DNA of 64,000 bases, taken from NCBI GenBank assembly GCA_016719925.1, contig JADJYC010000004.1:56697-120696 (forward strand), written 5' to 3'. The notes beneath the pieces were generated by a model, which worked only from the letters and a program-made list of their open reading frames with translations, was not told the DNA's origin and made no database searches. The DNA is from Crocinitomicaceae bacterium (GTDB taxonomy: Bacteria; Bacteroidota; Bacteroidia; Flavobacteriales_D; Crocinitomicaceae). This document shows, piece after piece, positions 3,263 to 60,070 of the stretch (positions are counted from its first letter, which is position 1; every line of letters begins with the position of its first letter). A program made the position numbers and the translations under genes.

Positions 3263-4252
3263 ATCCTGAAAGATCAATTTGGCAGAGTCCATGATTACCT
3301 GCGTATTTCTCTTACAGAAAGATGCAATCTCCGTTGTTTTTACTGCATGCCTGAAGAAGGTGTTCCGTTAAGAGAAAAAGCGGAATTTATGTCGGCTGAA
3401 GAAACTGTTCAGATTGCTGAGGAATTCATTAAACTGGGAATAAAAAAAATCCGTCTGACCGGTGGAGAGCCCCTGATCAAAAAAAACTTTGCAAAAATTT
3501 TGCATGATCTTTCAACGTTTGAAATTGAACTTGCATTAACTACCAACGGAATTCTGATTGATCAGTATATCCATGATTTTAAAACTGCCGGATTAAAATC
3601 CATAAACGTCAGTCTGGACTCACTGAATGAAAACAATTTCAAAACCATTACACGCCGGTCAGATTTTCAGCGCGTGATGAATAATATTGATTTGCTGATT
3701 GAACAGGGAATCTCACCAAAAATAAATGCGGTTGTAATGCGCGGGGTGAATGATCATGAACTGATTAACTTTGTTAAATGGGGAGCAGAAAAAGATCTGT
3801 CAGTGCGGTTTATTGAGTTCATGCCTTTTGACGGAAACAAATGGAACTGGGATAAAAAAGTTTCATATCAGGAAATTTTAACTGCCCTTGAAAATCATTT
3901 TGGAAAAGATAAGATCATTCCGCTAATGGGTGGAAAAAATGATACCAGCAGAAATTTTAAATTAGAAAATTCAAAAGGCAGTTTTGGAATTATCAGCAGT
4001 GTTACCAATCCGTTTTGCGACACCTGTAACCGGATACGCTTAACGGCAGACGGAAAAATAAAAAACTGTCTCTTCGCCTCTTCTGAAACTGATTTGCTGA
4101 GCGAAGTAAGAAAAGGAAATTCAATAACGCAATTAATTCGTGATTCGATCTTCACTAAAAAATCAGCCCGTGCCGGTATTCCGTCATTTGAAGAACCTGC
4201 TCATGTTGAAGCGTTTTTCAAGAACCGGAGTATGATTACTATTGGAGGGTAA
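3263..4252 (+). CDS. moaA: GTP 3',8-cyclase MoaA (molybdenum cofactor biosynthesis protein A)
   Basis: N-terminal motif LKDQFGRVHDYLRISLTERCNLRCFYCMPEEG carries the radical-SAM Cys triad. The C-terminal motif CDTCNRIRLTADGKIKNCLF is the second Fe-S cluster. No in-frame ATG exists upstream of the Cys triad (frame stop at 3227-3229), so the true start (CTG 3242, ATC 3263, or an upstream error) is unresolved. Confidence 0.85.
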   Translation: MLKDQFGRVHDYLRISLTERCNLRCFYCMPEEGVPLREKAEFMSAEETVQIAEEFIKLGIKKIRLTGGEPLIKKNFAKILHDLSTFEIELALTTNGILIDQYIHDFKTAGLKSINVSLDSLNENNFKTITRRSDFQRVMNNIDLLIEQGISPKINAVVMRGVNDHELINFVKWGAEKDLSVRFIEFMPFDGNKWNWDKKVSYQEILTALENHFGKDKIIPLMGGKNDTSRNFKLENSKGSFGIISSVTNPFCDTCNRIRLTADGKIKNCLFASSETDLLSEVRKGNSITQLIRDSIFTKKSARAGIPSFEEPAHVEAFFKNRSMITIGG

Positions 4253-4278
4253 CTTTCATTTTGTTAAATAAATTATTT

Positions 4279-4379
4279 ACCACGGAGACACGGAGAGCAC
4301 AGAGTTTCACAGAGAAATTATTAGCACAAAACAAAATCTAAATCTCCGTGTTACTCCATGCTCTCCGTGTCTCCGTGGT
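4279..4379. repeat. MITE-like palindromic element, copy A
   Basis: Left arm ACCACGGAGACACGGAGAG... and right arm ...TCTCCGTGTCTCCGTGGT are ~35-bp imperfect inverted repeats around an AT-rich core. Related copies lie at 5052-5140, 39843-39948 and 39991-40098. Confidence 0.7.
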
Positions 4380-4459
4380 AGAAGAAACTCAATTCATCTG
4401 CTCCACTCATAGCAATGCGTTGATCTGAGATTCATGAAATTGACTCTTTTTTCGTAAAT

Positions 4460-4699
4460 TTGAGTATGAAGTCAACGATTCAACATACAAAAATTGAACT
4501 TATTCAATGGCTCACAACCTTGGAAGACCAAACCATTCTGAATAAAATTCTTGCACTCAGAAAAAAGGAAACAAAAGACTGGTGGCAAAACCTTTCTGAA
4601 TCTGAAAAGGAATCCATTGAAAAGGGATTAAAAGATGCAAAAAACGGTAAACTAAAGTCCCATAATAAGGCCAGAAAGGTGTATGAAAAATGGCTATAG
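4460..4699 (+). CDS. Putative antitoxin of a RelE/ParE-type toxin-antitoxin pair
   Basis: A 79-aa ORF overlapping the downstream RelE/ParE-like toxin gene by 17 nt, the classic type II TA arrangement. It has a lysine-rich C-terminus. Confidence 0.5.
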   Translation: MSMKSTIQHTKIELIQWLTTLEDQTILNKILALRKKETKDWWQNLSESEKESIEKGLKDAKNGKLKSHNKARKVYEKWL

Positions 4700-4988
4700 A
4701 ATTTTCTGGACAGATCATGCACTGAATGAACTTAAAACAACTTTCGATTTTATAAACGAACATTGGACGCAAAGAGAGATTAAAAATTTGGCTCAGGAAA
4801 TTGAACTGGTTGTTGAGTTATTATCCAGAAGTCCTAAAATCTTTCCAGAATCATCTTCAAAAAAAGGAATCTACAAAGCACTTGTCACTCCGCTCAATAC
4901 GATTTACTTCAGAGTTAATGGAAACTCAGTAGAAATCTTGTCCTTTTTCGCTAATAGAAAAAATCCGTCAAAGCTAAAAGCAGAATAA
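4683..4988 (+). CDS. Type II toxin-antitoxin system RelE/ParE family toxin
   Basis: 101 aa. MKNGYRIFWTDHALNELKTTFDFINEHW...IYFRVNGNSVEILSFFANRKNP follows the pattern of ParE/RelE plasmid-stabilisation toxins. Confidence 0.65.
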   Translation: MKNGYRIFWTDHALNELKTTFDFINEHWTQREIKNLAQEIELVVELLSRSPKIFPESSSKKGIYKALVTPLNTIYFRVNGNSVEILSFFANRKNPSKLKAE

Positions 4989-5051
4989 TTTTTAATCAGA
5001 TTTTCTACTCAAAATCGTTTGGTGAATTATAAATTATTTAACAAAGAGATA

Positions 5052-5140
5052 TTGAGATCATTGAGTTTCACAGAGAAATTATTAGCATCACACAAAATCA
5101 AATTCTCCGTGCAACTCCATGCTCTCCATGTCTCCGTGGT
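5052..5140. repeat. MITE-like element, copy B (left arm degenerate)
   Basis: Shares ...GAGTTTCACAGAGAAATTATTAGCA...TCTCCGTG..CTCCATGCTCTCCATGTCTCCGTGGTTAAAAAAA with copy A. Confidence 0.6.
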
Positions 5141-5148
5141 TAAAAAAA

Positions 5149-5511
5149 TTAATTTCTTGGATCAATCACTTCAGGGTTCACCAGCACAGGAACACAACCC
5201 GGCTTATGATAAATACAGATGATCAATGGATCACCCAATTTCAGATTCAGTTCATCCAGCATAATTTCAAACGTGGAACCTTTGGTAATCCGGTTGGAAA
5301 TTTCACCGTTCACTTCTGGCGCACGCGTAATGCAAACGGTACTGTCAGCATTAGAAGGATTATAGACAATCAGATTTCTCAATTCATAGTTGCCATAGAA
5401 TTTTGTGCATACATCTTCTGTCTGATCTTGTACAGTGTTTTCACTTTTCCAAAAATGAAATGAAGACAGCATCAAAAATGCGCAAACTACTATTACCGGA
5501 ATTCTTGCCAT
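5149..5511 (-). CDS. Hypothetical secreted protein (120 aa)
   Basis: N-terminal hydrophobic signal MARIPVIVVCAFLMLSSFHF. No recognisable domain. Confidence 0.35.
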   Translation of the reverse strand: MARIPVIVVCAFLMLSSFHFWKSENTVQDQTEDVCTKFYGNYELRNLIVYNPSNADSTVCITRAPEVNGEISNRITKGSTFEIMLDELNLKLGDPLIICIYHKPGCVPVLVNPEVIDPRN

Positions 5512-5606: not shown

Positions 5607-6140
5607 ATGTCTCACAAAAAACTCAAACTGCAGGAACTTAACCGAATTTCAGCCAATGAATTCAAAGAAGCTGAAAAAATTCCGCTTATAATTGTTTTAG
5701 ATAACATCCGCAGTTTTAATAATGTCGGATCTGTTTTCAGAACTGCGGATTCATTTCGGATAGAAAAAATATTTTTATGCGGCATTACACCTCAGCCACC
5801 TCACCGTGAAATTCATAAAACCGCATTAGGAGCAACTGAAACTGTCAGCTGGGCCTACGCGGTGGACACCCTGGAATTAGTTCAATCACTCAGAAGTTCA
5901 GGCGTTCACTGTTTTGCCATTGAGCAAACTGAAAACTCAACCATGCTTGACAAATTTTCACCGGACAAAAACAACCGCTACGCTTTTGTGTTTGGTAATG
6001 AAGTAGACGGTGTGAGACAAGATGTAATTGATAACTGCAACGGTGTAGTTGAAGTACCCCAGTTTGGAACAAAACACTCGTTGAATATTTCTGTTTGTGC
6101 GGGGGTGGTGATGTGGGATTTTTGTGGTAAATTTAAATGA
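5607..6140 (+). CDS. TrmH/SpoU family RNA 2'-O-methyltransferase
   Basis: SPOUT motifs: ...IIVLDNIRSFNNVGSVFRTADSF... and ...VFGNEVDGVRQDVIDNCNGVVEVPQFGTKHSLNISVCAGVVMWDF. Confidence 0.8.
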   Translation: MSHKKLKLQELNRISANEFKEAEKIPLIIVLDNIRSFNNVGSVFRTADSFRIEKIFLCGITPQPPHREIHKTALGATETVSWAYAVDTLELVQSLRSSGVHCFAIEQTENSTMLDKFSPDKNNRYAFVFGNEVDGVRQDVIDNCNGVVEVPQFGTKHSLNISVCAGVVMWDFCGKFK

Positions 6141-6235
6141 AAGGGTGATTCGTTTGATTGGTGCAGAGTAAATCAGATCTAAAGCTATAATGGCAATCAT
6201 ATTCAATACATTGCAATCAATTTAAAATAACAAAC

Positions 6236-6979
6236 TTGAAAATACCCTTTGAACCAGAAATCTTTGATGTCAAAATCAATATTCATTTGATTCTGGAATA
6301 TTTAGCGTTTTTCATTGCTTTCAGATACTATTTAATTTTAAGAAAGACATCCAATGATTCCATTTCAAATGGAAATCGACTTTCAATTATTTTAGGTGCA
6401 GTTCTTGGAGCACTTGCTGGTTCAAGAATAATTGGATTTTTGGAAAATCCGGATATCACGTTGAGTACTGAAAATCTTTTAGCATTGTACAATTTAAAAT
6501 CTATTATGGGCGGATTATTTGGTGGGTTAATTGGCGTTGAAGCAGCAAAAAAAATAATTCACGAAAAACAATCTTCAGGTGACTTGTTCACCTTTCCTAT
6601 CATCACCGGAATTATAATTGGGCGCATTGGTTGCTTTTTAAGTGGAATTAACGAATTTACCTATGGCAAAGAAACAGACTTCATTGCCGGCATGGACCTG
6701 GGAGATGGATTATACCGGCACCCAACCGCTTTATATGAAATAATCTTTTTAATTATGCTTTTTATTTTTCTCAAAAACAAAAACTCCAATACAAAAAAAG
6801 AAAGCGGTTTATTATTCAAAGTATTTATGATTTCGTATTTTGGGTTTCGCTTCGTTATTGAATTCATTAAACCAAACACATTTTTCGTTTTTGGACTAAG
6901 CAGCATTCAGTGGCTATGCATCATTTGCTGGATCTATTATTTTCCGGTTTTAAAAAGAATAACAAGAAATGCCAACTAG
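6236..6979 (+). CDS. Prolipoprotein diacylglyceryl transferase (Lgt) family membrane protein
   Basis: Lgt-like signature GRIGCFLSGINEFTYG...GLYRHPTALYEIIFLIMLF...FGFRFVIEFIKP and multiple transmembrane segments. The ORF overlaps the start of the downstream radical-SAM gene. Confidence 0.65.
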   Translation: MKIPFEPEIFDVKINIHLILEYLAFFIAFRYYLILRKTSNDSISNGNRLSIILGAVLGALAGSRIIGFLENPDITLSTENLLALYNLKSIMGGLFGGLIGVEAAKKIIHEKQSSGDLFTFPIITGIIIGRIGCFLSGINEFTYGKETDFIAGMDLGDGLYRHPTALYEIIFLIMLFIFLKNKNSNTKKESGLLFKVFMISYFGFRFVIEFIKPNTFFVFGLSSIQWLCIICWIYYFPVLKRITRNAN

Positions 6980-8359
6980 AAAATACGTCTACTACGACTA
7001 TACCATAAGTTTATGTCCGGAGTGTTTAAAACGCATTGACGCTAAAATTGTATTTGAAAACAACAACGTTTACATGTTGAAGAGATGTCCGGAACATGGG
7101 AACTCCAAAGTTCTGATAGCTGATGACATTGAATACTACAAAAGCATCAGAAACTATAACAAAGCTTCCGAAACACCTTTTCGATTCAATACCAAGACAA
7201 ATTATGGATGTCCCTATGACTGTGGTCTTTGCCCTGACCACGAGCAACATTCATGTCTAAGTATAATTGAGATAACTGATCGCTGCAACCTGACCTGTCC
7301 AACTTGTTATGCAAACTCATCACCATCCTTTGGAAGACATAGAACTTTCGAAGAAGTAAAATCAATGTTAGACACGATCGTAGAAAATGAAAAAGAACCT
7401 GACGTTGTACAAATCAGTGGTGGTGAACCAACATTACACCCACAATTTTTGAAATACTTGATTATGCTAAAACCTTGCCGGTCAAACACCTGATGGTGAA
7501 TACAAACGGAATTGAAATCGCAAAAGACTTTGAATTTGCTAAACGGCTGAAAAATTATTCTCCCGACTTTGAAATTTATCTTCAATTCGATTCTTTCAAG
7601 GAAGAAAATCTGGTTTCACTCAGGGGAGCAAATCTAAAAAAAATAAGGGAAAAGGCAATCGAACATCTTAATCAACTAAATCTTTCTACAACTCTTGTAG
7701 TCACTTTACAAAAAGGTTTAAATGACAGTGAAATTGGAGAAATAGTTGATTATGCACTTAAACAAAAATGTGTTAGAGGCGTAACTTTTCAACCAATACA
7801 AGTTGCCGGGAGAACTGAAAATTTTAATCACGAAAATGAAAGGATTACACTCACCGAAGTCAGAAGAAAAATTCTGGAGCAAACCAACATATTTAATCAG
7901 GACGATTTAATTCCGGTACCATGTAATCCGGATTCACTGGTCATGGGATACGTATTAAAATTAGACGGAAAAAATATACCACTTACCAGATATATCAATC
8001 CGTCTGATCTGCTAGATAACAGCAAAAATACAATAGTCTACGAACAAGACGAAACATTGCATCAAAAGATGTTTGAAATTTTCAGCACCGGAACATCAAC
8101 CGATAAAGCTTCTTCAAAATTGCATAGTCTTCTTTGTTGTCTTCCTTCTGTTGAGGCGCCAAATCTTAGTTATGATAATTTGTTCCGTATTATCATCATG
8201 CAATTCATCGATGCCTACAATTTTGATGTAAGAGCAATTAAGAAATCCTGTGTTCACATTGTAAATAAGGACAATAAAATAATCCCCTTTGAAACAATGA
8301 ACATCTTTTACCGTGATGACAAAAAAGAATATTTAGAAAAACTGATAACAAAACATTAA
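6969..8359 (+). CDS. Radical SAM protein with an N-terminal Cys-rich (zinc-ribbon-like) domain, broken by a frameshift at the T5 run 7446-7450
   Basis: CPECLKRIDAKIV...CPEHG...YGCPYDCGLCPDHEQHSC precedes the radical-SAM cluster ITDRCNLTCPTCYA. The GGEPTLHPQF segment in frame 0 continues as EILDYAKTLPVKHLMVNTNGIEIAK in frame +2. A T6 at this site would give a continuous ~460-aa protein. Confidence 0.7.
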
Positions 8360-22624: not shown

Positions 22625-24475
22625 ATGAAAGGATTTGTCCAGATTTTTAAACTTGCGTTTACTTATAAGCGGACAGCTGTTGCAGTTATTATCTTCAACT
22701 TTCTTTTTGCCATTTTTAATCTCCTTTCTCTTGTCCTTTTTGTCCCGTTTCTGGAATTGATTTTTAAAGAAGAAAAAAACGGAGAACTTGAAACCATTGT
22801 CAAACCAGATTGGGATACCAGTAAAGGCGCCATTGATTATTTCAGTGACTATTTTGAATACATGCAGGCAACTTTTATTAAAACACATGGTGAAGCAGGT
22901 GCCCTGGCTTTTATTTGTATTGCCGTTTTAGTTGCATTTCTTTTAAAGAATTTATTCCGTTATGGCGCCATCTGGCATCAGTCGTATTTACGAATGGCTG
23001 TGGTACGTGATCTCAGAAAACAACTTTTTGGAAAAGCTATTCATTTACCGCTTGCCTATTATTCTGAAGAGAAAAAAGGAAATTTACTGGCGCGCATGAC
23101 TGCCGATTTGAATGAAATTGAAATTGCTGTTGTGTATATTCTTGAAATTATTTTCCGTGAACCTATTTCAATCATCATTGCTTTATCCGTTTTATTTTAC
23201 TGGAGTACAGAACTTACTTTGTTCTCACTGATACTGATGCCGGTGAGTGCTTTTTTTATTTCCAGAATTGGCAAGAGTTTAAAACGTACTTCAGCCAAAG
23301 GCCAGCAGCAAATGGGTCAGGTGCTTTCAGTTATTGAAGAATCACTTGGTGGTGTCAGAATCATTAAAGCATTCAATGCTGAAAAAACTGCGCAAAAAAG
23401 ATTGGAAAAAGAAAATGATCATCATCAGAATTTAATGACCCGCGCGTTCAGAAAAAAAGAACTTGCTTCACCGCTGAATGAATTTTTAGGAGCTGCTGTT
23501 TTAATTTCTATTGTTTGGTTTGGCGGAAAAATAATTTTGGAAAAAGGAGGCGGAACATCTGCCATGACCGGTGATGAATTTATTGCGTTCATTATTGTTT
23601 TCTCTCAATTACTTCGTCCGGTGAGCGGTATTGCAAGCGGACTCGCCGCAACCAGCAAAGGTTCTGCTTCCATTGACCGGATCAATGAAATTCTGGATCT
23701 CACGGAGCAAATTCAAGATCCGAAAAATCCGGTACAGAAAAATTCATTTGACCGCACAGTAGAATTTGATCATGTGGTTTTTGCGTATGCTGATGAGCCG
23801 GTGCTGAAAAATATTTCTTTCAAACTTGATAAAGGAAAAACGATTGCCCTGGTTGGTGAAAGTGGTAGTGGCAAGTCAACTATTTCTGATTTGATTCCGC
23901 GGTTTTATGATGTAAAATCCGGCGCTGTTAAAATTGATGATGTCAATGTGAAAGACATGACCAAAAAAGATTTGCGTGAATTGATCAGCGTGGTGACGCA
24001 GGAATCTATTCTCTTCAATGACAGTATTCACAATAATATTGCTTTTGGAAAACCCGATGCTACAGAAGAAGAAATCATTGCCGCAGCAAAAATTGCCAAC
24101 GCGCATGAATTTATTTCATCGTTTGAAAATGGATACGATACAAACATTGGTGACCGTGGAAATAAACTTTCCGGCGGACAAAAACAACGTTTGAGTATTG
24201 CACGCGCCGTACTAACTAATGCACCTATCATGATTCTGGATGAAGCTACCTCAGCACTTGATACCGAATCTGAAAAACTGGTTCAAGATGCACTGGACCG
24301 TTTGATGAAAAACAGAACGTCACTGGTTATTGCGCATCGCCTCAGCACCATTAAAAATGCTGATCAGATTATCGTTCTGAAAAAAGGTGAAATTGTTGAG
24401 CAAGGCACACACGCTGAACTAATCGCTGCCAATGGCTATTACAAATCACTTTGTGATATTCAGGCGGTGATTTGA
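22625..24475 (+). CDS. ABC transporter ATP-binding/permease protein (MsbA-like exporter)
   Basis: Six TM helices, then Walker A GESGSGKST, signature LSGGQKQRLSIARA and Walker B ILDEATSALD. 616 aa. Confidence 0.85.
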   Translation: MKGFVQIFKLAFTYKRTAVAVIIFNFLFAIFNLLSLVLFVPFLELIFKEEKNGELETIVKPDWDTSKGAIDYFSDYFEYMQATFIKTHGEAGALAFICIAVLVAFLLKNLFRYGAIWHQSYLRMAVVRDLRKQLFGKAIHLPLAYYSEEKKGNLLARMTADLNEIEIAVVYILEIIFREPISIIIALSVLFYWSTELTLFSLILMPVSAFFISRIGKSLKRTSAKGQQQMGQVLSVIEESLGGVRIIKAFNAEKTAQKRLEKENDHHQNLMTRAFRKKELASPLNEFLGAAVLISIVWFGGKIILEKGGGTSAMTGDEFIAFIIVFSQLLRPVSGIASGLAATSKGSASIDRINEILDLTEQIQDPKNPVQKNSFDRTVEFDHVVFAYADEPVLKNISFKLDKGKTIALVGESGSGKSTISDLIPRFYDVKSGAVKIDDVNVKDMTKKDLRELISVVTQESILFNDSIHNNIAFGKPDATEEEIIAAAKIANAHEFISSFENGYDTNIGDRGNKLSGGQKQRLSIARAVLTNAPIMILDEATSALDTESEKLVQDALDRLMKNRTSLVIAHRLSTIKNADQIIVLKKGEIVEQGTHAELIAANGYYKSLCDIQAVI

Positions 24476-24479
24476 TTTT

Positions 24480-24635
24480 TTACATCAACCCTCCCCTGTC
24501 CAAACTCCTATACTGTATTGCTTCTGCCAAATGATGTGGTTCAATGTTCACACTTTTTTCCAGGTCAGCAATAGTTCTGGCCACTTTTAAAATCCGTCCG
24601 TATGATCTAGCTGATAAACCCATTTTATCCATGGC
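24480..24635. repeat. 156-bp direct duplication of the yifB/comM 3' end (copy 1, displaced)
   Basis: About 93% identical to 25249-25404. Its reverse strand encodes [52 protein letters not shown], the exact C-terminal 52 aa of the yifB product. Confidence 0.85.
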
Positions 24636-25176
24636 GAGTTTTAAATCCTATTTTTCTAATCTCAATTTTTTCATTTTTAACTTCATCCTGAATCATCAAT
24701 CCATCGATATATTCAAAAAGTAACTCAATACTCTTGGTATTTCCATCAGTTTTTTGTTCGATCTTTTCGATTAACGATCTGAGCTCCGAATGATTTATCA
24801 CCATTTTACGCAAAGAAACAAAAGCTCTTATTATTGCGATATTCATCTCTCTTGCGCGCTTGCTTTTGAGCACGCTGGATAACATTGCAACACCCGTTTC
24901 AGTAAATGCAAAAGGTTCGGATCCTCCTAAATGTTGTTTGGAAGGAATAATATTCTGTTCAATTATAATTTCTATTTCTTCAGGAGATAGAACAAACATA
25001 AAATCCGTTGGAAATAAATCCAAGTTTCTGCGAACAGCTTGTTTTAATGCTCTGGTTTCAACTCCATAAATTTCTGCAAGATGAATATCAAGCATCACTT
25101 TCTCCTCTCTTAAAACAAAAATTTTATCGATTATGTTGTCTTCAGGTTTTACTTCTGATATTTCCTTAATCTTCAT
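24625..25176 (-). CDS. ORF6N (KilA-N related) domain protein
   Basis: [52 protein letters not shown] matches the ORF6N domain common in Bacteroidetes mobile elements. The gene lies between the two copies of the 156-bp repeat. Confidence 0.7.
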
Positions 25177-25198
25177 GTCTTTATTAGCTTTGATATGG

Positions 25199-25215
25199 TA
25201 TCACAATTTGTGACA
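25199..25215. promoter_or_regulatory. 13-bp palindrome TCACAATTTGTGA upstream of the ORF6N gene (candidate operator)
   Basis: Perfect TCACAA-T-TTGTGA palindrome 23 nt upstream of the ORF6N start. A second identical copy is at 27032-27044. Confidence 0.3.
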
Positions 25216-25248
25216 CCATTACATTAAGTTCAATCATTTAACTATTCA

Positions 25249-26781
25249 TTACATCAACCCTCCCCTATCCAAACTCCTATACTGTATAGCCTCTGCCAAA
25301 TGATGCGGTTCAATGTTCACACTTTTTTCCAGGTCAGCAATTGTTCTGGCTACTTTCAAAATCCGTCCGTATGATCTTGCAGATAAACCCATTTTATCCA
25401 TGGCATTTTTTAGAAGCAATTGCCCGGCATCTGAAACCTGACAATATTTTTCACTCAGCTGCGGATTCAATTGTGCGTTGTAATAAATGCCTTTGTATTC
25501 TTTGTATCGGTTTTCCTGCAAAGCTCTTGCGGCAACAACACGTTTTCTGATTTCTTCACTGCTTTCTCCTTTTCTTACATCTGCCAACTCCTCAAATTTT
25601 ACCGCCGGAACTTCAATGTGCAAATCAATTCTGTCCATGAGCGGACCGGAGATTTTCTGCAAATATCTTTTCACCACAATTTCAGGATCAGAATTTGGAT
25701 CATTGGCATCGTAAAAATTTCCTGACGGAGATGGATTCATACTTGCAACCAACATAAATCCCGCCGGATATTCCACCGACATTTTTGCTCGTGAAATTGT
25801 CACCACTCTATCTTCCAAGGGCTGACGCATCACTTCTAAAACCTGTCTTTTATATTCAGGCAATTCATCTAAAAATAAAATGCCGTTGTGCGCCAGAGAA
25901 ATTTCACCGGGTTTTGGATTTGATCCGCCGCCAACGAGTGCTACATCGGAAACCGTGTGATGCGGCGACCGAAATGGCCGTGTCATCAGCAATCCATGAT
26001 TGGCACCTACCAATCCGGCAACGGAATGTATTTTAGTTGTCTCCAGTGCTTCATCAATTGTCAGCGGTGGTAAAATGGTTGGAAGTCTTTTAGCCAGCAT
26101 TGTTTTTCCTGAACCGGGAGGACCAACCAATAAAATATTATGCCCGCCGGATGCCGCAATTTCAAGCGCTCGTTTGACATGCTCTTGTCCTTTTACATCG
26201 GCAAAATCAACCAGATAATTTAATGCATCCTCTGCTCTATCATCACGCTGAAATTTTGCGGGAACAATGGCTTTCATTCCGTTCAGATAATCCACCACAT
26301 CTCTGATATTTTCCACACCAATGATATCAATGCCTTCCACAATTGCTGCTTCGTTTGCATTCTGATACGGCAGAATAAATCCTTTGAATCCCATGTCGCG
26401 CGCTTTGATGGCAATGGATAATGCACCACGAATTGGCTGCACACCGCCGTCTAAAGAAAGCTCACCCATGATCAGGTATTTTTCAATTTCAGGATTGACG
26501 ATTTGTTCACTCGCAGATAAAATTCCAACAGCAATGGTGAGATCATACGCTGACCCTTCTTTGCGAATATCTGCCGGAGCCATGTTCACCGTTATTTCAC
26601 GCCGCGGATATTTATAATCTGCGTTGGTAAACGCCGCTTTGATTCGTTGATGACTTTCTTTAATAGCACTGTCCGGCAACCCCACCAGAAAAAAATTGAT
26701 TCCGTTGCTCAGATTTGTTTCAACCGTGATGGGAATTGCTTCTATCCCATATACTGCACATCCAAAAGTTTTGACTAACAT
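25249..26781 (-). CDS. comM: YifB/ComM family Mg-chelatase-like AAA+ ATPase
   Basis: Lon-like N-terminal domain, Walker A VGPPGSGKTM, Walker B/sensor FLDELPE, and the C-terminal ...[17 protein letters not shown]... 510 aa. Confidence 0.85.
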   Translation of the reverse strand: MLVKTFGCAVYGIEAIPITVETNLSNGINFFLVGLPDSAIKESHQRIKAAFTNADYKYPRREITVNMAPADIRKEGSAYDLTIAVGILSASEQIVNPEIEKYLIMGELSLDGGVQPIRGALSIAIKARDMGFKGFILPYQNANEAAIVEGIDIIGVENIRDVVDYLNGMKAIVPAKFQRDDRAEDALNYLVDFADVKGQEHVKRALEIAASGGHNILLVGPPGSGKTMLAKRLPTILPPLTIDEALETTKIHSVAGLVGANHGLLMTRPFRSPHHTVSDVALVGGGSNPKPGEISLAHNGILFLDELPEYKRQVLEVMRQPLEDRVVTISRAKMSVEYPAGFMLVASMNPSPSGNFYDANDPNSDPEIVVKRYLQKISGPLMDRIDLHIEVPAVKFEELADVRKGESSEEIRKRVVAARALQENRYKEYKGIYYNAQLNPQLSEKYCQVSDAGQLLLKNAMDKMGLSARSYGRILKVARTIADLEKSVNIEPHHLAEAIQYRSLDRGGLM

Positions 26782-26850
26782 TTTTTGTTTTCATAAAATC
26801 GTTTTGAGTATTGGAGATCGTTTTGTCTCTTTTACAAGACAGATGTTTTT

Positions 26851-26946
26851 AGAGGTGGTCGCAAATTGCGACCACCTCTGAATTAGTTGCTGCGATTGAC
26901 TTTAAGCAATATCTTTAAATTGGAGGTGCTAAATTGGCACCTCCAA
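26851..26946. other. Two strong hairpins in the yifB upstream region (12-bp stem GGTGGTCGCAA/TTGCGACCACC and 10-bp stem TTGGAGGTGC/GCACCTCCAA)
   Basis: Perfect inverted repeats at 26851-26880 and 26920-26946, in the intergenic region between convergent and divergent minus-strand genes. Confidence 0.4.
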
Positions 26947-27320
26947 TTACGCGTACAAATACAATCTTGAACATTCCAAATAATATAGGAAAATGACCTC
27001 ACACGTTGTTTGAACAGAAAACTTGAAATCACAATTTGTGACCCCAATTCTGAATATTCATTATCAGAATGTCGAAATAAAAATTCCATTAAAAAAATAA
27101 TAAATCGTCTTGAATACTGGAGATCGTTTTGATCTGCGAAAGCAGAACAGGGAAGAATTGAGAATTACAATTCGGGGACCAAGGTATTAAAAAAATTCTA
27201 AATCGCTAAAAATCCGGGAGGACTAAAAAAAATTTGATGTATCCATTAGATCAGAAGGTTAAAATAAAATGGATTACCGAAAGTTGATTTTTTAATCGGA
27301 TCAGAATTATAGATTAATCC

Positions 27321-28385
27321 TCAATATTTGAAAAAATGGTTGGTCTGAATCAGATTTCCATTATTGGTGATTTGATAATAATAGATTCCTGAATAAAGCA
27401 TTGATAAGTCGATTATAATTTCCTGATTGAAATTTGTTTCGTCCAGTTTTCTGCCATCTGCCGAGTAAATAGTCAATAGAAGCGTATTTTCGTTTTGAGG
27501 CTGATTCGTTTTGAAAATGATAAAATCATCTGCTGGATTTGGATACACCGAAAATTTTTGACTGCCAACTTCACTTATTGAACCTGTTGGGTGAACCGCG
27601 TATCCGCTCTGAATATTTTTTAGTGCCCAACCGTTTTTTCCAGAAGTAGTATTATCCGATATAAAATTGAATCTGAAAATTAATGAATCGTTTTGATCGG
27701 CAGTTTTCACACCCCCATAGTTAAAAAACATTTCAGTGTAGAACTCTTGCCACAAATCATATGTACCTGTGTAAACACAGCTGGAATCAAACAGTGAATC
27801 TCTGTAGCCGTTAATTTCATGGTAATAATTGTGAAAGGCATCAGTGGCTAGTTGATGCATATAAATAGTATCGCTGTTGTCAGTTATCATCTGATAATAA
27901 AAATCACTAAAAACAACATCGCTTGCTGATCCAACAGGCATCAGATAGCGCAACCAGAACGTAGTTAATGTGTCACCATCATGAACATAATCAATTGAAT
28001 CATTGTCGATATTTATATCAATGAAGCCTCCGGCATGATTCGTATCAGTATCTATTTTGTGATCAAAGGATAAAACGTAAGCTGTTCCTAATTCAACATA
28101 GCCACCTTCATATGGTCTGGTAAGAATAATTTCTACACTGGCTGACGTATTTGACGAATACATATTTAAAGTATCCGTAACTAATATATCTGTTGATGAA
28201 GTTCCGAAAAAAGGTTTATAAGATTGTCCGTAATGCCAAACTAAACTGTCATTTGCAGTTTGCCATTGGAGTTGATTTTCAGAAATTGGATTTATTTCGT
28301 ATTCCCAGTATAATAAAGGCCCTTGAGCAAATAGTTTGAAACCAAGATTTGAAATCAATAAAATAAATAAGAATTGAAATTTCAT
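27321..28385 (-). CDS. Secreted protein with a T9SS C-terminal sorting domain
   Basis: Signal peptide MKFQFLFILLISNLGFKLFAQ. C-terminal ...FSVYPNPADDFIIFKTNQ...GRKLDETNFNQ...LYSGIYYYQITNNGNLIQTNHFFKY resembles a type-A T9SS CTD. Confidence 0.5.
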   Translation of the reverse strand: MKFQFLFILLISNLGFKLFAQGPLLYWEYEINPISENQLQWQTANDSLVWHYGQSYKPFFGTSSTDILVTDTLNMYSSNTSASVEIILTRPYEGGYVELGTAYVLSFDHKIDTDTNHAGGFIDINIDNDSIDYVHDGDTLTTFWLRYLMPVGSASDVVFSDFYYQMITDNSDTIYMHQLATDAFHNYYHEINGYRDSLFDSSCVYTGTYDLWQEFYTEMFFNYGGVKTADQNDSLIFRFNFISDNTTSGKNGWALKNIQSGYAVHPTGSISEVGSQKFSVYPNPADDFIIFKTNQPQNENTLLLTIYSADGRKLDETNFNQEIIIDLSMLYSGIYYYQITNNGNLIQTNHFFKY

Positions 28386-30403: not shown

Positions 30404-31489
30404 TTATTCTTTAATCATTACATCCAGATAAATGGGCAAATGATCTGCAAAGCCGCCGTGATAATTAAACCCAACATAGGTACGGTTTGTGGTTTTTCCA
30501 ATACCGTCAGACTCCGGTTCCAGTAAATAATCAGCGTCAAAAATCTGAACAAGATTCATTGGTGTAATCAGATTTCCGGTTTGAAAATACATGTTTGGTG
30601 AAGCAATAAACTGATCCAGAATTCCCCATTCATGCTGATAACTGTGTGTGCCTTTTATGTTTTCATATTGCCACATCAGATTAATAAGATCTCCTTTTTT
30701 AAACTGAGCAGAATCTTTCACCGCTTTTAATATTTCATGCATGCTGATATCATCGGGATGATCATTAAAATCTCCCATAGCCAGAATATATGCATCAGGA
30801 TTCAGTGTCATCAGTGAATCAAATTTTTCCTTCAGTGTTTTTGCAGCAAACTGTCTTTTATGTTCTGTTTGCATTTGACCGCCGTATCTGGAGGGCCAGT
30901 GATTGACGAATAAATGCAAGGTGTCTTTGCCAACCAATCCTTTCATGTATAAAATATCACGTGTTGGAGAATGATCAACCGGAAAAATCAATTCATACGA
31001 ATAGAAATTCAAAAAAGAAAAATGTTCAGGTCTGTATAAAAATGCTACATCAATTCCCCTTGCATCTTTTGATTCCTGATGCACAATTTCATAACCAAAT
31101 TCTTTGAGCGGCGAATTATAAACAAGATCTTTCAGACACTGAATATTTTCAATTTCACACAAACCAATCACGGCCGGTGGTTCCCACTGACCTATTGCCA
31201 GAGCGGTTTTCCCGATTTTTGCAAGTTTATCATTGTAGCGCTGATAAGTCCAGTATCGTGTTCCTTCTTCAGTAAACTCATCATCATTTTTAATTGAATC
31301 ATTTGTGGGATGAAAAAGATTTTCCACGTTGTAAAACATGATGCGAATTCCCTTTTTTTCTTCCTGCGGATTTTGTGCGTTTGTGTTAGAGCCAAAGAAA
31401 GATAGAAAAGAAAAAAGGACTATGGGCAAAGGACAGAGGACAAAGCGAAAAGGAAAAAGGACAAAGGGATTTCTTTTGTTTGATTTCAT
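30404..31489 (-). CDS. Endonuclease/exonuclease/phosphatase (EEP) family protein
   Basis: ...IRIMFYNVENLF...GLCEIEN... are EEP motifs. The N-terminal ~35 aa (RNPFVLFPFRFVLCPLPIVLFSF) is encoded by the heptamer repeat array at 31423-31475. Confidence 0.65.
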   Translation of the reverse strand: MKSNKRNPFVLFPFRFVLCPLPIVLFSFLSFFGSNTNAQNPQEEKKGIRIMFYNVENLFHPTNDSIKNDDEFTEEGTRYWTYQRYNDKLAKIGKTALAIGQWEPPAVIGLCEIENIQCLKDLVYNSPLKEFGYEIVHQESKDARGIDVAFLYRPEHFSFLNFYSYELIFPVDHSPTRDILYMKGLVGKDTLHLFVNHWPSRYGGQMQTEHKRQFAAKTLKEKFDSLMTLNPDAYILAMGDFNDHPDDISMHEILKAVKDSAQFKKGDLINLMWQYENIKGTHSYQHEWGILDQFIASPNMYFQTGNLITPMNLVQIFDADYLLEPESDGIGKTTNRTYVGFNYHGGFADHLPIYLDVMIKE

Positions 31490-33339: not shown

Positions 33340-33810
33340 TTCAATTCACTTCGACTTCGACTACGCTCAGTCTCCGTGGACGGCTTCTTGACTTTGACTT
33401 CGAGAACCTCAGTCTCCGTGGATGGTTCTGAAAAATAAAATTCGAGGAAAATTCGTACTTCTAACTTCGTACCTCATACTTCGAATTCGGCTCACTTCGA
33501 CAATGCTCAGTACGAGTCGCTCAGTCTCCGTGAACGGATTCTTAACTTCGACTTCGGCTACGCTCAGTCTCCGTGGATGGTTCTGAAAAATAAAATTCGA
33601 GGAAAAATTTGTACTTCTAACTTAGTACCTCGTACTTGATTTCGGCTCACTTCGACAATGCTCAGTGCTAGTCGCTCAGTCTCCTTGAACGGTCTTAACT
33701 TGAGAACCTCAGTCTCCGTGGATAGCTTGACTTGACTTGACTTGCCACGCTCAGTCTCCGTGGATGGTTCTGAAAAATAAATTGAGGAAAATTGTCCTTA
33801 CCTCGTACTT
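33340..33810. repeat. Higher-order tandem repeat block carrying seven copies of the 15-mer CTCAGTCTCCGTGRA
   Basis: 15-mer copies at ~33366, 33405, 33519, 33557, 33673, 33706 and 33745. Spacing alternates ~39 and ~115 bp, and the long spacers are themselves near-identical (...TGGTTCTGAAAAATAAAATTCGAGGAAAATTCGTACTTC...). The TCTCCGTGG 9-mer equals the right-arm terminus of the MITE-like elements. Confidence 0.75.
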
Positions 33811-35069: not shown

Positions 35070-38000
35070 CTATTTTTGTATAACCAGTTTTGAAACTGAA
35101 ATACCGTTTGATGATTTAATCTGCACCATATAAACTCCGGCAGGAATTGTACTCAGATTTAATTCAAAAGAACTTCCGCTGATATTTGTTTCTTCAAACA
35201 CTGCTGAAGATCTTGAATCATACATAGTGATACTTACATCATTCAATGCAGCCGAAAATTTCAACAGACAAATTTCATTTGCCGGATTTGGATACAAACT
35301 AAAATTCAATTGAGCATTTTCATCAAATCCAATTCCGCTGATATTTACACAGGCAGATGTATCTGTACATCCATTTTCACTGACAACTACCGCATAATTT
35401 CCATCAACGGATGCAACAAAATCCTGATCAGTTTCACCGGTGATTTCAGAATTCCCATTATCACAATCAATCCACTGATAAGATGTTGCTGTTGACGTTA
35501 CAGCAGAAATTGTAAAACCTGAAAGTGAGGTTGAAACATCCACATTGTTTACGGTAAGATTAATTGTAATGGTGCTGTCACAACCTTCTGAATTTGGAAT
35601 TATATCCGTGTAAGTTCCGGTCACTGTATAGGTATTTCCTTCAGGACTTAAATAAGAACCGCATGCTGTCGGATTTATAGTACTGGAAGATTCATTGTTT
35701 ACAATCAGATCAATTGTGACTGTGCTATCACATCCTGTCATGTTGGTCAGAATCTCTACATAATTTCCGGAAGTTGTCAATGTTGCTCCAAGCGGACTTA
35801 TGTATGAACCACAGACTACAGGCGTAAGCAATGTATCATTACTGTTATTAATTACCAGTTGAATAGTTATTGTACTGTCACACCCTGCCATGTTTGGAAT
35901 GATATCAAAATAGGTTCCGGTTGTGCTGTAATTATTTCCTGCCGGACTTAAATAATTATCACATTCAACCGGAGAAATTGTACTTGCAGTTGATACACAT
36001 AAGCCTGAACCTGAAACAAACATCGGCCAGAATTTTGATGCATCATAAAATGCAACTCCGGGGTCACCGCTGCCCAAAGCAATCATGCTGGTAAATTGTC
36101 CGGTAGTACCTGTTGTTGCAAGCACCATTGGAGAATTCCATGCAATTCCTGTTGCCTCAGAAGCACGAATATATTTCAGATTTCCATTTGAACCGTCATA
36201 ATAACTGATAGCAGGATTTCCGCTGATTACTTTCAGTGAGGTGTATTGACCAATTGTTCCGGTAGTTTCAAGAGTCAGCGGGGTTGCCCATGCAGCACCG
36301 CTTGCATCCATTGCTCTCACATATTTAAGCGAGGAAGTTGTAATATCATAATAACTGATTGCAGGATTTCCGCTTACAATTTGCATTGAATTATATTGTC
36401 CTACGCTCCCTGTTATATCAATTGCCTGCGGTGCACCCCACGTTGTTCCGCTTGCGTCAGTTGCACGCACATAATTCAAATTAAAACCTGTTGCGTCATA
36501 ATAAGCAATTGCAGGATTTCCATTCACGGAAATCAATGAATTATGCTGACCCACTGTTGCAGCGTTATCAACTGTCACAGGTGTATGCACTTCCATTTGC
36601 ATCCGTTGACCGAACATATTTAAGCGCTGAGTTTGTAGCGTCATAATATGCGATAGCAGGATTTCCGTTGATCACACACAGTGAAGTATATTGCCCTGTA
36701 GTTCCGGTAATATCAATATTGACCGGAGTATTCCATGTTGTTCCATTTGCATCTGCTGCGCGAACAAATTTTAACGCTGTATTGGTTGCATCATAATATG
36801 CAATTGCAGGATTTCCATTCACAATATAAGCGGAGAGATAAGCACCAACTGATCCGGTTGCATCCACATTGACAGAAGTTCCCCATGAAGAACCTGTGGC
36901 ATCTAATGCACGAACAAAAACCAAATCCAAATTAGCAACATTCTGATAAGCTACCGCAGGAAAACCATTTGCAAGAACTGCTGAAGAATATTCTCCCACA
37001 TCTCCCGTTACATCAAATGAAGCCGGAGTACCCCAGACGGCGCCATCGGTATCGGTTGCACGAACAAATCTCAGATTAGTATTTGAAACATCATAATAGG
37101 TAATTGCAGGATTTCCATCAACAATATTTAAGCAGGTATATTGTCCGGTAGTACCGGCAGCATCAACTGAAACAGGTGCAAGCCAGATATCGCCGTTAGC
37201 ATCTGTTGCCCTGAAATATTTTAATGCTGTATTTGTTGCATCATAATAGGAAACAGCCGGAAAACCATTTACAACTTTGAGTGAATTGTATTGACCAACC
37301 GTACCTGTCAAATCAAGATCTATAGGTGTATTCCAGGTAATTCCGGTTGCATCTGCAGCACGTACATAACGCAAAGCAGAATTAGTCGCATCATAATATG
37401 TTATTGCCGGTCTGCCGTTTACTGATTCGAGCGAAGTATATTGACCTACTGTATTTGTCAGATCAATGGTAACTGACGCGCTCCATGTTAGACCATCAAC
37501 ATCAGTGGAACGAATATATTTCAGAGAAGAATTGGTTGCATCATAGTAAGAAACAGCAGGATTTCCATTGATTGTATCCAGAGATGTATACTGACCTACT
37601 GTTCCTGTTACGTCCAGATCAACAGGAGTATTCCAGACAGTTCCGCTTGCATCAGAAGCACGGCAAAAAGTCAGTGCAGAATTTGAAGCATCATAATATG
37701 TAATTGCCGGATTTCCGTTAATAGATTTCATGGATAAATATTGGCCGACACTTCCGGTTGCTTCCACCGTAACAGGAGTGCCCCAGCTGGTTCCGTTTAC
37801 ATCATTTGCACGAATATATTTGACATCCAGATTAGTTGCATCATAATATGCGATTGCAGGATTTCCATTAATTACAGCGAGTGAAGCATACTGACCAACC
37901 GTTCCAATTGCATCAACAACTACAGGCGCATTCCAGGCTGATCCATCGCTGTTTGAAGCACGGATATAAATCAAACTTAAATGCGTCACATCATAATATG

Positions 38001-38178
38001 CCATAGCTGGATTACCATTGACAATTTCCATCGATGAATATTGTCCGGTATTTCCACCTGTACCAAATGGAGTTTCAATCACAACCGGCGTACCCCAGGT
38101 TTGCGCTGATGAATTTTTTATAACTAAAATTGCTGAGAGAACCAGCAATACTTTTGAAAACGGGTAAAATAGTTTCAT
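35070..38178 (-). CDS. Large secreted repeat protein with a T9SS C-terminal sorting domain, containing ~22 tandem ~45-aa repeats, three CDSTITI modules and a CTD; one frameshift near 36590
   Basis: Signal peptide MKLFYPFSKVLLVLSAILVIKNSSAQ. Repeat unit ...NGNPAIAYYDATNxxLKYVRAxDAxGTxWxTPVxVDxTGTVGQYxSL... Three repeats of ...GTYxDIIPNxxGCDSTITIxLxVNN.... End ...YPNPANEICLLKF...AGVYMVQIKSSNGISVSKLVIQK. ORFs 36568..38178 and 35070..36644 overlap in different frames. Confidence 0.6.
36010..38100. repeat. Intragenic ~135-bp tandem DNA repeats (~22 units) encoding the 45-aa protein repeat
   Basis: Recurrent ...ATTGCAGGATTTCCATT..ACAAT...ATATTGACCAAC... units can be read directly in the sequence. 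Confidence 0.7.
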
Positions 38179-39842: not shown

Positions 39843-39948
39843 AACACGGAGACACGGAGACCAAAGAGTAACACGGAGAAGCTAAGTGAGCAAAGTTCAA
39901 CAGAGATCTTTCTCTGTGAACCTCCATGCTATCTTTGTCTCTGTGGTT
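39843..39948. repeat. MITE-like element, copy C
   Basis: AACACGGAGACACGGAGACCAAAGAGTAACACGGAGAAG...CTCTGTGAACCTCCATGCTATCTTTGTCTCTGTGGTT. Terminal inverted repeats built on CACGGAGA. Confidence 0.65.
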
Positions 39949-39990
39949 AAAAAATTACCTGATTATTTAACATTCTTCGGCAAGTTCAGG

Positions 39991-40098
39991 ACAAACGGAG
40001 ACACGGAGACCAAATATTTACACGGAGAAACTAAGTGAGCAGAGTTCAGCTGAGATTTTTTCTCTGTGAAACTCCATGTTCTCTGTGTCTCTTTGGTT
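39991..40098. repeat. MITE-like element, copy D (tandem to copy C)
   Basis: ACAAACGGAGACACGGAGACCAAATATTTACACGGAGAAACTAAGTGAGCAGAGTTCAGC...CTCTGTGAAACTCCATGTTCTCTGTGTCTCTTTGGTT. Confidence 0.65.
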
Positions 40099-40120
40099 AA
40101 AAAAAAATTCCTGATTAATT

Positions 40121-55010: not shown

Positions 55011-56059
55011 TTACTTCAAATTATCAATAACCTTTTTCACCATCTCTTCAAACACCTGAGCAGACAACGTATTTTCCTGCAAAACAGCTGGCCGCCCAAC
55101 ATCACCTGCCTCGCGAACGCTTTGTATCAAAGGAACCTGAGCAAGTAAAGGTACATTCATCGATTCAGCCAAATTCTTTGCACCGTCTTTTCCAAAAATG
55201 AAGTACTTATTGTTTGGTAACTCTTCCGGCGTAAACCAGGCCATGTTTTCTACAATTCCTAAAACAGGTACTTTCAACGAATCCATACGGAACATATTGA
55301 TTCCTTTTCGTGCATCTGCCAAAGCAACTTCTTGCGGCGTACTGACAATAACAACTCCTGTTAACGGAACATTTTGCACCAATGTCAAATGCACATCACC
55401 AGTTCCGGGAGGTAAATCCACAATCATAAAATCGAGATCACCCCAATCCGCATCTTTGAACATTTGATTTAATGCTTTGGTTGCCATAGGGCCTCGCCAT
55501 ACAACCGCTTGTTCAGGATCAGCAAAAAATCCAATGGAAAGAATTTTTACTCCGTATGATTCGATTGGTTTGATCAAAGTTTTTCCATCTTTTCTACACC
55601 AACCGGTCTTTGTCCAACCAAATCAAACATGGTTGGCATGGATGGTCCGTAAATATCCGCATCTACCAATCCAACTTTATAACCAAGTTTAGCCAGACCT
55701 GCGGCCAGATTTGCAGTGATGGTAGATTTTCCAACACCACCTTTTCCGGATGCAACGGCAATAATGTGTTTTACATTGGAAAGAATTGCACGCACTTCAG
55801 GTTCTTTATCTTTTGGAAGCGGTACCAATGAAATTTCTGCTTCAATGTCTTTTCCGAACGCACGTTCAAGCTGAAACTGCAATGCTTCTTCCATCCGCTT
55901 TTTTGCATGCATGGCAGGATTGTACACCTTGACACTGAATGAAATTTTATTACCGTCAATTTTTATATCCGAAACGAGATCAAGTGTGATGATGTCTTTT
56001 TTCAGATCAGGCTCGATGACTTTTCTGAGCGCTTCGATTAGGTTTTCTTGTGTGATCAT
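55011..56059 (-). CDS. apbC: Mrp/NBP35 family Fe-S cluster carrier ATPase (ApbC), frameshifted at the T4 run 55590-55593
   Basis: N-terminal DUF59-like segment, P-loop [19 protein letters not shown], ...VGVEK in one frame, then [22 protein letters not shown]...DLPPGTGD in the other. Confidence 0.75.
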
Positions 56060-56063
56060 TGTT

Positions 56064-56250
56064 TAGGGCTAAGGGCAAAGGACTAAGGACAAAGGGATTC
56101 GTTTTGTTAGCTTAATGCTTGCCAATTATTTTTTAGTTGTTTTTTTGGAGAACTAAGGGCAGGGGGCTAAGGACTAAGGGGAACTTTTAATTTTAAAAAA
56201 CTTTTCCATTGACCTTTGCCCCCTGTCCTTAGCCCTTTGACCTATTTAGA
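56064..56250. repeat. Heptamer-repeat element: forward arrays (56064-56098, 56150-56188) and inverted array (56212-56245)
   Basis: GGGCTAAGGGCAAAGGACTAAGGACAAAGGG...AACTAAGGGCAGGGGGCTAAGGACTAAGGGG...CCTTTGCCCCCTGTCCTTAGCCCTTT. The first ~85 bp are homologous to 57018-57102. Confidence 0.7.
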
Positions 56251-57012: not shown

Positions 57013-57017
57013 ATTTT

Positions 57018-59860: not shown

Positions 59861-59925
59861 AATCGGACTATTTTTGTTTTTGATTAAGAAACCCCTTATC
59901 TTTGCCCCAGTTCTTAATTTTATTT

Positions 59926-60032: not shown

Positions 60033-60070
60033 CGTTAATCAGTTTTCCGGTCTCGCCTCTGTAGTTGTTT

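Follow-up and report, generated by a model that had tools for sequence, protein, structure and literature searches.

The stretch of DNA analysed here (termed 'the window') comprises 64,000 nucleotides of the forward strand of contig JADJYC010000004.1 (positions 56,697 to 120,696), from the metagenome-assembled genome (MAG) of a Crocinitomicaceae bacterium, GCA_016719925.1. The subject of the analysis is a small insert, carrying a single ORF6N (KilA-N-related) gene, at the 3' end of the comM (yifB) gene within that window. The comM gene itself (25249-26781, minus strand) is intact and encodes a 510-residue AAA+ protein with the Pfam domains ChlI, Mg_chelatase and Mg_chelatase_C, which scores 627 bits against the NCBIfam model TIGR00368 (cut-off, 362). 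Its stop codon is followed by a 72-bp leader (25177-25248, minus strand) that forms the left part of the unique insert, and then by the ORF6N gene (24625-25176, minus strand; 183 amino acids; a member of what is termed here 'subfamily A'), beyond which lies a second copy of the last 51 codons and stop of comM (24480-24635, minus strand). The resident downstream neighbour is an ABC transporter gene (22625-24475, plus strand; 616 amino acids; Pfam ABC_membrane and ABC_tran) that runs convergently towards comM, with 4 bp between its stop codon and that of the second comM copy.

The two copies of the comM 3' end, R1 (25249-25404, joined to the gene body) and R2 (24480-24635), constitute direct repeats of 156 bp that align without gaps at a register of 769 and are identical at 147 of 156 positions (94.2%), close to the ~93% given in a preliminary description of the locus. 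Each encodes, on the minus strand, the same peptide, namely the last 51 amino acids of ComM (rather than 52, as first described) followed by the stop codon. The differences between the copies, originally put at 'about nine' and all synonymous, number exactly nine, and alignment places every one of them at a third codon position, with no non-synonymous change. By the method of Nei and Gojobori (9 synonymous and 0 non-synonymous differences), the divergence per synonymous site (dS) is 0.34 and that per non-synonymous site (dN) is 0; the probability that nine random changes would all fall on synonymous sites is ~1e-6. The homology ends on one side exactly at the comM stop codon and on the other at positions 24635 and 25404 (comM codon 460), beyond which only 10 of the next 17 nucleotides match. 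R1 is the functional copy by virtue of its attachment to the gene; R2, which has no upstream comM body and abuts the native ABC transporter junction, is most likely the resident comM 3' end, shifted downstream by the insertion.

The 613 bp between the repeats (24636-25248) contain one open reading frame (ORF) and a palindrome and nothing else, as the preliminary description had stated; no transposase and no tns genes are found in the insert, where ORF6N is the only ORF, and a scan of positions 24300-27400 against Rfam returned nothing relevant. The final 11 nucleotides of the ORF6N reading frame (three codons and the stop) are contributed by R2; close homologues end in ...GFKTGRK* and the window gene in ...GFKTRHG*. 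Because R2 supplies only these last codons, the insert junction coincides with the natural C-terminus of ORF6N. The leader (25177-25248) displays no homology to the region downstream of R2.

The same structure is found in an independent assembly of this organism (L001, GCA_020054605.1) that is 99.92% identical to the window over 4851 bp, with none of the four differences inside the repeats, and is therefore not an assembly artefact. As a separate observation, R2 retains an ATG-initiated ORF of 50 amino acids (24480-24632) whose start overlaps the ORF6N stop codon (CATGGATAA), a layout typical of translational coupling; it is annotated as a gene in L001, and any expression or selection of it would be hypothetical.

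Relatives of the locus and recurrence of the structure

A scan for ComM in genome and metagenome collections yielded 160 Bacteroidota comM loci. In a close relative, L090 (ComM 96% identical, DNA 83-86% identical), the SIS-domain gene upstream of comM and the convergent ABC transporter gene (6189-8039; ~86% identical in DNA sequence) are shared with the window. Neither an ORF6N gene nor a second comM end is present at its comM/ABC junction; thus, the insertion either postdates the divergence from L090 or has been lost in that relative. The preliminary description had looked to relatives for an empty site, which L090 provides only in part: it lacks the ORF6N gene and the duplication, but its junction instead holds a gene for a 148-residue IS200/RAYT-like protein (Y1_Tnp, 3.8e-20; 5609-6055), so that the site is not strictly empty. 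The position downstream of comM is variable rather than ancestral, and a recent gain of ORF6N at comM is supported. The IS200/RAYT-like gene of L090 is bordered by hairpins of the GAATCCC..GGGATTC type, and a Y1 transposase gene of the same kind also lies directly downstream of comM in L072 (7621-8046).

The peptide common to R1 and R2 differs from that of L090 at four residues, and the two copies are about equally distant from L090 in their DNA (29 and 32 differences for R1 and R2, respectively). Across the whole of comM, dS between the window and L090 is 1.3, as compared to 0.34 between R1 and R2, which identifies the copies as alleles of two lineages separated by a much smaller distance than that between either of them and L090. 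Both copies thus evolved as working gene ends in separate lineages, and the proposal of the preliminary description, that the second 3' end had been shaped by purifying selection in a different lineage, is borne out by a dS of 0.34 combined with a dN of 0, the lineage being a closely related one. Comparison with L090 is uninformative as to which copy is native: L090 agrees with R1 at six of the nine sites and with R2 at the other three, in an interleaved pattern, and is saturated. R1 would be the foreign copy, a point that L090 does not decide, being too diverged at those nine sites; a mosaic test along comM against L090 revealed no shift in divergence near R1.

An arrangement of the kind expected in a donor exists in nature, since an ORF6N gene directly follows comM, with no duplication, in L084/L085 (gene order SIS, Por-tail, comM, ORF6N; ComM and ORF6N each 64% identical to those of the window), and L006 has an ORF6N pseudogene in this position. 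Neither in L084 nor in L006 did a search beyond ORF6N reveal any decayed piece of comM.

The upstream side of comM carries a second, older ORF6N-type scar (26796-27131, minus strand), in which a 30-bp stretch of the comM leader occurs twice in direct orientation (26796-26825 and 27102-27131), on either side of ~276 bp of decayed sequence that contains three ORF6N-type palindromes (26848-26882, 26918-26948 and 27028-27046). L090 has, between the SIS gene and comM (3352-4000), an intact ORF6N gene of another subfamily ('B'; 175 amino acids from its likely start), bracketed by a ~35-bp direct repeat of the comM leader (GACAAAACGA..TATTCAAGACGATT) that is the same leader repeat as in the window. 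With this upstream scar added to the downstream insert, comM has ORF6N scars on both sides.

The window structure recurs at a different gene. Ten distinct subfamily-A loci were inspected, and in one of them, represented in three samples (L250-L252), the methyltransferase gene rlmL (THUMP/UPF0020) is followed, after its stop codon, by a 69-bp leader, an ORF6N gene of subfamily A as the sole cargo, and a copy of the rlmL 3' end. This copy is 195 bp long and 88.7% identical, begins about 9-22 nucleotides after ORF6N, and loses its homology at the rlmL stop codon. In L250, the copies differ at 22 positions, of which 16 are synonymous and six non-synonymous (dS 0.53, dN 0.042, dN/dS 0.08, P ~6e-7), the latter being confined to the last few residues and the boundary. 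The rlmL locus can be regarded as an independent replicate of the window design, in an unrelated genome and with a different anchor gene.

Flanking repeats also occur in other subfamily-A loci. In L254/L255, a non-coding direct repeat of 107 bp (803-909 and 4541-4647; 94% identical), with a terminator-like hairpin, flanks 3.6 kb containing pirin, yceI, osmC, a crp-like gene and a subfamily-A ORF6N gene, and the downstream copy begins at the ORF6N stop codon. In L087, tandem ORF6N genes of subfamilies B and A have common upstream and downstream flanks, and a repeat starts at each stop codon; as a tandem ORF6N pair, this locus was rejected as a third case of the window type and bears only on the regularity at the stop codon. 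Relative to the ORF6N stop codon, the downstream repeat begins at -11 in the window, at about +9 in L250, at 0 in L254 and at -6 in L087 (a partial copy). No flanking repeat is present in five of the ten loci (L082, L084, L086, L253 and contexts of the L257/L262 type). In two contexts lacking a repeat (L082/L083 and L261/L262), the ORF6N gene lies directly after a pair of Xer-like tyrosine recombinase genes; this module (3156-5537 in L082, 110-2625 in L262) has a common downstream motif (GGAAAGCGGTGTTCGTCATC), and across the two lineages its recombinases are just 38% and 29% identical, as compared to ~68% for ORF6N.

All 270 sequences fetched (2.2 Mb) were also compared with themselves. Among the 160 comM-centred loci, short dispersed direct repeats of high identity were found at comM ends only. 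The comM 3' end is duplicated in Aquimarina (L038, 7424-9769; 116 bp, 95.7% identical), around a gene for a 641-residue beta-helix protein, and in Winogradskyella (L060, 5571-6877; 88 bp, 96.6%), around a gene for a 333-residue WG-repeat protein. In Polaribacter (L037, 1643-3156), it is the 5' end of comM that is duplicated (156 bp, 98.7%), around a gene encoding 333 residues, and in Muricauda (L069, 4460-6067), the repeat (211 bp, 95.3%) spans the 3' end of the neighbouring gene, the intergenic region and the first 67 nucleotides of comM, around a gene encoding 329 residues. These cargos are single orphan genes, in none of which was a recombinase domain found, and the gap between their stop codons and the repeat is 32-128 nucleotides. 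The homology ends at the stop codon of the anchor gene in L038 and L060, as it does in L250 and in the window. Because the neighbouring genes in the comM-centred loci (~1400, by the estimate of this analysis) show no such repeats, comM is enriched for duplicated ends, and the process that duplicates them would seem to be general at comM.

The preliminary description had interpreted the window structure as the hallmark of an integrative element, possibly a small remnant of one, while noting that the element itself contains no integrase. The second statement stands: tblastn searches with four tyrosine recombinases, which are of limited sensitivity, found none in the insert or in the 64-kb window. 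The first, in the sense of an island driven by an integrase or the remnant of such an island, is not supported: in the same searches of the 160 comM loci, whose flanks reach at most 6 kb, no recombinase was found adjoining the comM 3' end, and integrase-like matches occur in L015 and L023 only, in neither case at that end. Larger, integrase-bearing elements at the same position of comM, for which the description had advised a search, were likewise not found in those loci and flanks.

The ORF6N gene and its palindromes

The ORF6N protein matches the Pfam family ORF6N (PF10543) with an E-value of 7.7e-27 and 93.8 bits (cut-off, 27.8), and more than 7900 homologues were scored for it. Subfamily-A proteins are ~180 amino acids long, contain a shared sequence motif and are 60-76% identical across Bacteroidota. 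The window protein also matches the PADLOC candidate defence family PDC-S05 (E = 9.5e-50), and ORF6N may be considered a member of this candidate anti-phage family, at the level of a candidate family only. The corresponding AlphaFold model is well determined at residues 11-125, with a predicted local distance difference test (pLDDT) score of 85-90, and poor in the C-terminal helices; its predicted fold is probably a winged-helix/APSES-like DNA-binding domain with additional helices. Foldseek returned no significant match to this model in the Protein Data Bank (PDB), and no nuclease or recombinase fold is seen in it. ORF6N is probably a winged-helix DNA binder that represses its own gene at the palindrome described below.

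Subfamily A appears not to be phage-borne in IMG/VR, because a scan of its viral contigs with the single window protein gave no match and a profile scan found other ORF6N subfamilies only, at no more than 56% identity; of 76 such matches, two have a flanking repeat, 38 bp in length. No subfamily-A protein was found on the plasmids of PLSDB, where the best match is 50% identical. The literature searched on ORF6N contained nothing on mobility, on flanking duplications of gene ends or on a palindrome within the coding sequence.

The leader of the window gene contains a near-palindrome of 21 bp (GGTATCACAATTTGTGACACC; 25197-25217, unstranded), whose centre precedes the ORF6N ATG by ~30 bp and whose inner 13 bp (TCACAATTTGTGA; 25201-25213) form a perfect palindrome. 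In L250, L082 and L262, a leader of 58-72 bp likewise comes after the stop codon of the preceding gene, and the palindrome in the L250 leader is AAGATCACAATTTGTGATCTT. Palindromes were compared in the window, L170-L249, L090, L087, L082, L084, L086, L250, L253, L254, L257 and L262. Five of the ten subfamily-A loci have an equivalent palindrome at a distance of 26-34 bp ahead of the ATG, and three more have one at some other upstream position, with the core TC(A/G)CAA(A/T)TTG(C/T)GA, covarying flanks and arms of 9-14 nucleotides.

The same palindrome also occurs within ORF6N coding sequences, at a fixed place (nucleotides 170-235), with the core TCACAA[A/T][A/T]TGTGA and arms of 10-15 nucleotides that again have covarying flanks. 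Among 30 non-redundant ORF6N genes of other subfamilies, 27 contain no longer palindrome than this one, and in most of those genes it exceeds in length the palindromes of 100 synonymous-codon shuffles (p <= 0.02). Because it is translated in different reading frames (at least two, giving ...LRSQIVTS... or ...(V/L)ITNCD...), it is conserved at the nucleotide level. Nine of the ten subfamily-A genes contain it (GGTATCACAAAATGTGATACC, encoding VVSQNVIP); the exception is the window gene, which has lost its copy. The 21-bp near-palindrome is probably a family-wide cis site, an operator, and the upstream and internal palindromes are most simply read as an operator pair for the winged-helix protein; the palindrome might also conceivably act as a cis site in recombination.

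Possible routes of insertion

The explanation preferred here, with modest confidence, is that an ORF6N cassette from a related lineage entered by integrase-independent recombination anchored in comM. The acquired unit would be the 769 bp that comprise a functional foreign comM 3' end, the 72-bp leader with its palindrome, and ORF6N, and would have come from a donor lineage in which ORF6N already lay just downstream of comM. Homology in comM would have driven its entry, the far side of the gene having no homology between the two genomes. Two routes may be envisaged: a Campbell-type insertion-duplication, in which a small circle or an 'ends-in' molecule would recombine through one crossover, or homology-facilitated illegitimate recombination (HFIR), in which a homologous crossover in comM would be combined with the illegitimate joining of the ORF6N end to resident codon 460. 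After either event, comM would still be whole and would end in one of the two alleles of the last 51 codons, the other allele persisting as a dead fragment beside the ABC transporter junction; neither route would require an integrase encoded by the insert. At the joint in the window there is a possible TAAAA microhomology a few nucleotides off, and the L254 joint has a candidate TAG/CTAG. Entry by homology is favoured because it covers six features together: two functional alleles, homology that stops at the stop codon, no recombinase, anchors that vary for a given cargo, cargos that vary for a given anchor, and duplications of both 5' and 3' ends.

Several observations nevertheless weigh against this interpretation. 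The repeat begins within ~11 nucleotides of the ORF6N stop codon in four subfamily-A loci, whereas random illegitimate joints should vary, and this regularity hints at a defined cassette end. The lengths of the duplications cluster at 107-195 bp. Natural transformation, or any other route for donor DNA, is not known for this organism, and the crossover points cannot be mapped without a closer uninterrupted genome. Furthermore, subfamily-A ORF6N genes follow a conserved Xer-like pair in two distant lineages, such that a recombinase might act in trans, and the search for integrases consisted of four tblastn queries. (A CAATTG near the repeat boundary was considered as a target motif and rejected, since comM contains five copies of it and R1 of L250 has none.)

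Two other explanations involve mobile elements. One, which is regarded as unlikely, treats the insert as a site-specific mini-element, in the form of a 769-bp attP circle integrated by a recombinase of the tyrosine or serine type whose gene lies elsewhere (or of the last remnant of an island), with the repeats corresponding to attL and attR. The architecture matches that of e14 in icd (the 3' end is directly repeated with differences that are mostly synonymous, and the gene is intact), the palindrome is laid out like the core site of a recombinase, with inverted arms around a short centre, and the Xer-like pair precedes ORF6N in L082/L083 and L261/L262. However, neither the insert nor the window, nor the comM 3' end in the 160 loci, yielded an integrase, and one recombinase specificity would not suffice for a cassette that is also found with an rlmL end and with non-coding repeats (L254 and L087), nor for comM repeats whose boundaries vary by lineage (156, 116 and 88 bp) and include 5'-end duplications. 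A remnant would require two independent deletions for an identical minimal product, and it is the occurrence of that product at rlmL that makes a decayed integrase island unlikely. Of the 'minimal cassette mobilised in trans' that the preliminary description had offered as its alternative to a remnant, the first half is supported, a minimal cassette being a much better fit in view of the rlmL locus, and the second, an integrase in trans, is not required by the structure.

The other, held to be quite unlikely, is a self-defined cassette, according to which the ORF6N protein and its palindromes would form a minimal mobile element of Bacteroidota, ~0.6 kb in size and with no conventional recombinase. 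Its right end would be fixed at the ORF6N stop codon and its left end variable, capturing the upstream host gene in a one-ended manner similar to that of ISCR/IS91; the captured gene end would then serve as a portable homology arm into any genome that contains the conserved gene, whatever lies downstream, and the palindrome, conserved across reading frames, would mark a cis site of the process. Junctions at the ORF6N stop codon in four loci, captured segments that range from 156 bp of comM and 195 bp of rlmL to 3.6 kb with four genes (L254), a protein that is 60-76% conserved across Bacteroidota orders in unrelated genomic places, and a palindrome maintained at the nucleotide level both upstream of and inside ORF6N genes in differing frames are all consistent with such an element. 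It is harder to reconcile with the predicted protein structure, in which no nuclease or recombinase fold is evident, with the same type of duplication around cargos other than ORF6N at comM, with the five of ten distinct subfamily-A loci that lack a flanking repeat, and with a window gene that lacks the internal palindrome.

Duplication of the target in place (as a long target-site duplication or a local tandem), followed by divergence within this genome, is very improbable. In its favour, the insert is bounded precisely by direct repeats, and several loci have repeats of comparable length, but a dead copy would be expected to accumulate only ~40% synonymous changes (by the estimate of this analysis), against which nine of nine has a probability of ~3e-4 and the 16 of 22 in L250 is also excessive; moreover, a dS of 0.34 would imply a long residence with not one disruptive change in a non-functional fragment. 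A transposon or insertion sequence with a target-site duplication was rejected on the same pattern, which is incompatible with neutral decay, and for want of a transposase. The idea that two strains' comM ends were joined during metagenome assembly takes its force from the origin of the window in a MAG and from the resemblance of the copies to strain variants. It is extremely improbable in view of the independent assembly at 99.92% identity, a junction between ORF6N and R2 with no long k-mer common to comM, and the analogous structures in the three rlmL samples.

Other features of the window were noted as well. Repeats of 128 bp that form hairpins (ACGGAGACACGGAGA...TCTCCGTGTCTCCGTGG; 4268-4395 and 5029-5156) bracket a toxin-antitoxin-like gene pair (79 amino acids at 4460-4699 and 101 amino acids at 4683-4988) downstream of a MoaA-like gene; considered as a possible target duplication, they are probably not one, and belong to a dispersed hairpin repeat family also found at 39846-40104. 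Runs of heptamer-like intergenic repeats (AGGGCAA/AGGACAA and their complement) occur at 31400-31480, 56050-57100 and 59640-62290; between 56 and 62 kb they adjoin numerous genes. Short repeats are clustered at 33345-33800 and include CTCAGTCTCCGTGGA, of which two 44-nucleotide copies, spaced 155 bp apart, are 100% identical, and about a dozen tandem coding repeats of 150 bp (63-81% identical) lie at 36090-38055 within large minus-strand ORFs (35070-38178). At position 28464, near the 3' end of the SIS-domain gene, a run of T residues is one shorter in the window than in L001 and L090, which alters the last ~20 residues of the product (196 versus 192 amino acids) and may represent an assembly error or a real frameshift.

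Comparison with known systems

Replacement of a gene end is the textbook signature of prophages and islands that carry an integrase. In the present case, a 0.6-kb insert of a single gene, for which no integrase was found, gives rise to this signature, which recurs at two housekeeping genes and in several Flavobacteriia. Scars at gene ends are therefore not automatically decayed islands. The results suggest that conserved genes of poor synteny, such as comM, offer sites where accessory or candidate defence genes can land singly by way of one-sided homology, and the recurrence at rlmL in an unrelated bacterium points to a small and little-known way of moving genes. Should the cassette prove to have its own end and a cis site, it would represent a new type of minimal mobile element and would provide a function for a very large uncharacterised family (more than 7900 close homologues).

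Toleman, Bennett and Walsh are said to have described, in 2006, complex class 1 integrons formed by ISCR1. That element has a rolling-circle transposase of the HUH type (~500 amino acids) and a defined oriIS. The window insert resembles these integrons in having one fixed end, variable adjacent DNA, homologous re-entry and a partial duplication on both sides of the cargo, and differs from them in that the modelled ORF6N protein appears to have no HUH transposase fold.

The comM gene is itself a known target in Acinetobacter baumannii, where it receives islands of the AbaR/Tn6022 type (PMC11441513, PMC7508600). The likeness ends with the target gene: those islands are Tn7-like, tens of kb long, and interrupt and inactivate comM with a 5-bp duplication, whereas comM in the window is intact beside a 156-bp repeat, and the mechanism is unrelated. 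A closer parallel is the insertion of e14 (and of the lambdoid phage 21) in the icd gene of E. coli, for which the element supplies a replacement 3' end and displaces the original as the pseudogene icdC (PMC13626634, citing Hill et al. 1989). In both cases, an insert is lodged within the 3' end of a housekeeping gene, whose own end comes to lie beyond it as a fragment; the two ends differ by conservative or synonymous changes, and function of the gene is preserved. In contrast to the window insert of 613 bp plus repeat, with its one non-recombinase gene, e14 is ~15 kb long, has its own integrase and excises site-specifically; in further contrast to e14, the type of cargo found in the window recurs with the 3' end of another gene.

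Displacement of the HFIR type, which leaves orphaned 3' ends, has been described for the type VI secretion system (T6SS), in the effector-immunity arrays of Vibrio cholerae, and for Rhs and contact-dependent inhibition (CDI) loci (PMC5361080). The ends exchanged in T6SS and Rhs systems are variable toxin domains with their immunity genes, and their displacement brings functional diversification; the two ends in the window encode the same peptide, such that only a scar results, and its junction lies regularly at the ORF6N stop codon, unlike those of HFIR. What the window insert has in common with this C-terminal displacement is a single conserved upstream anchor, an illegitimate far joint, an orphaned resident 3' part and the absence of an integrase.

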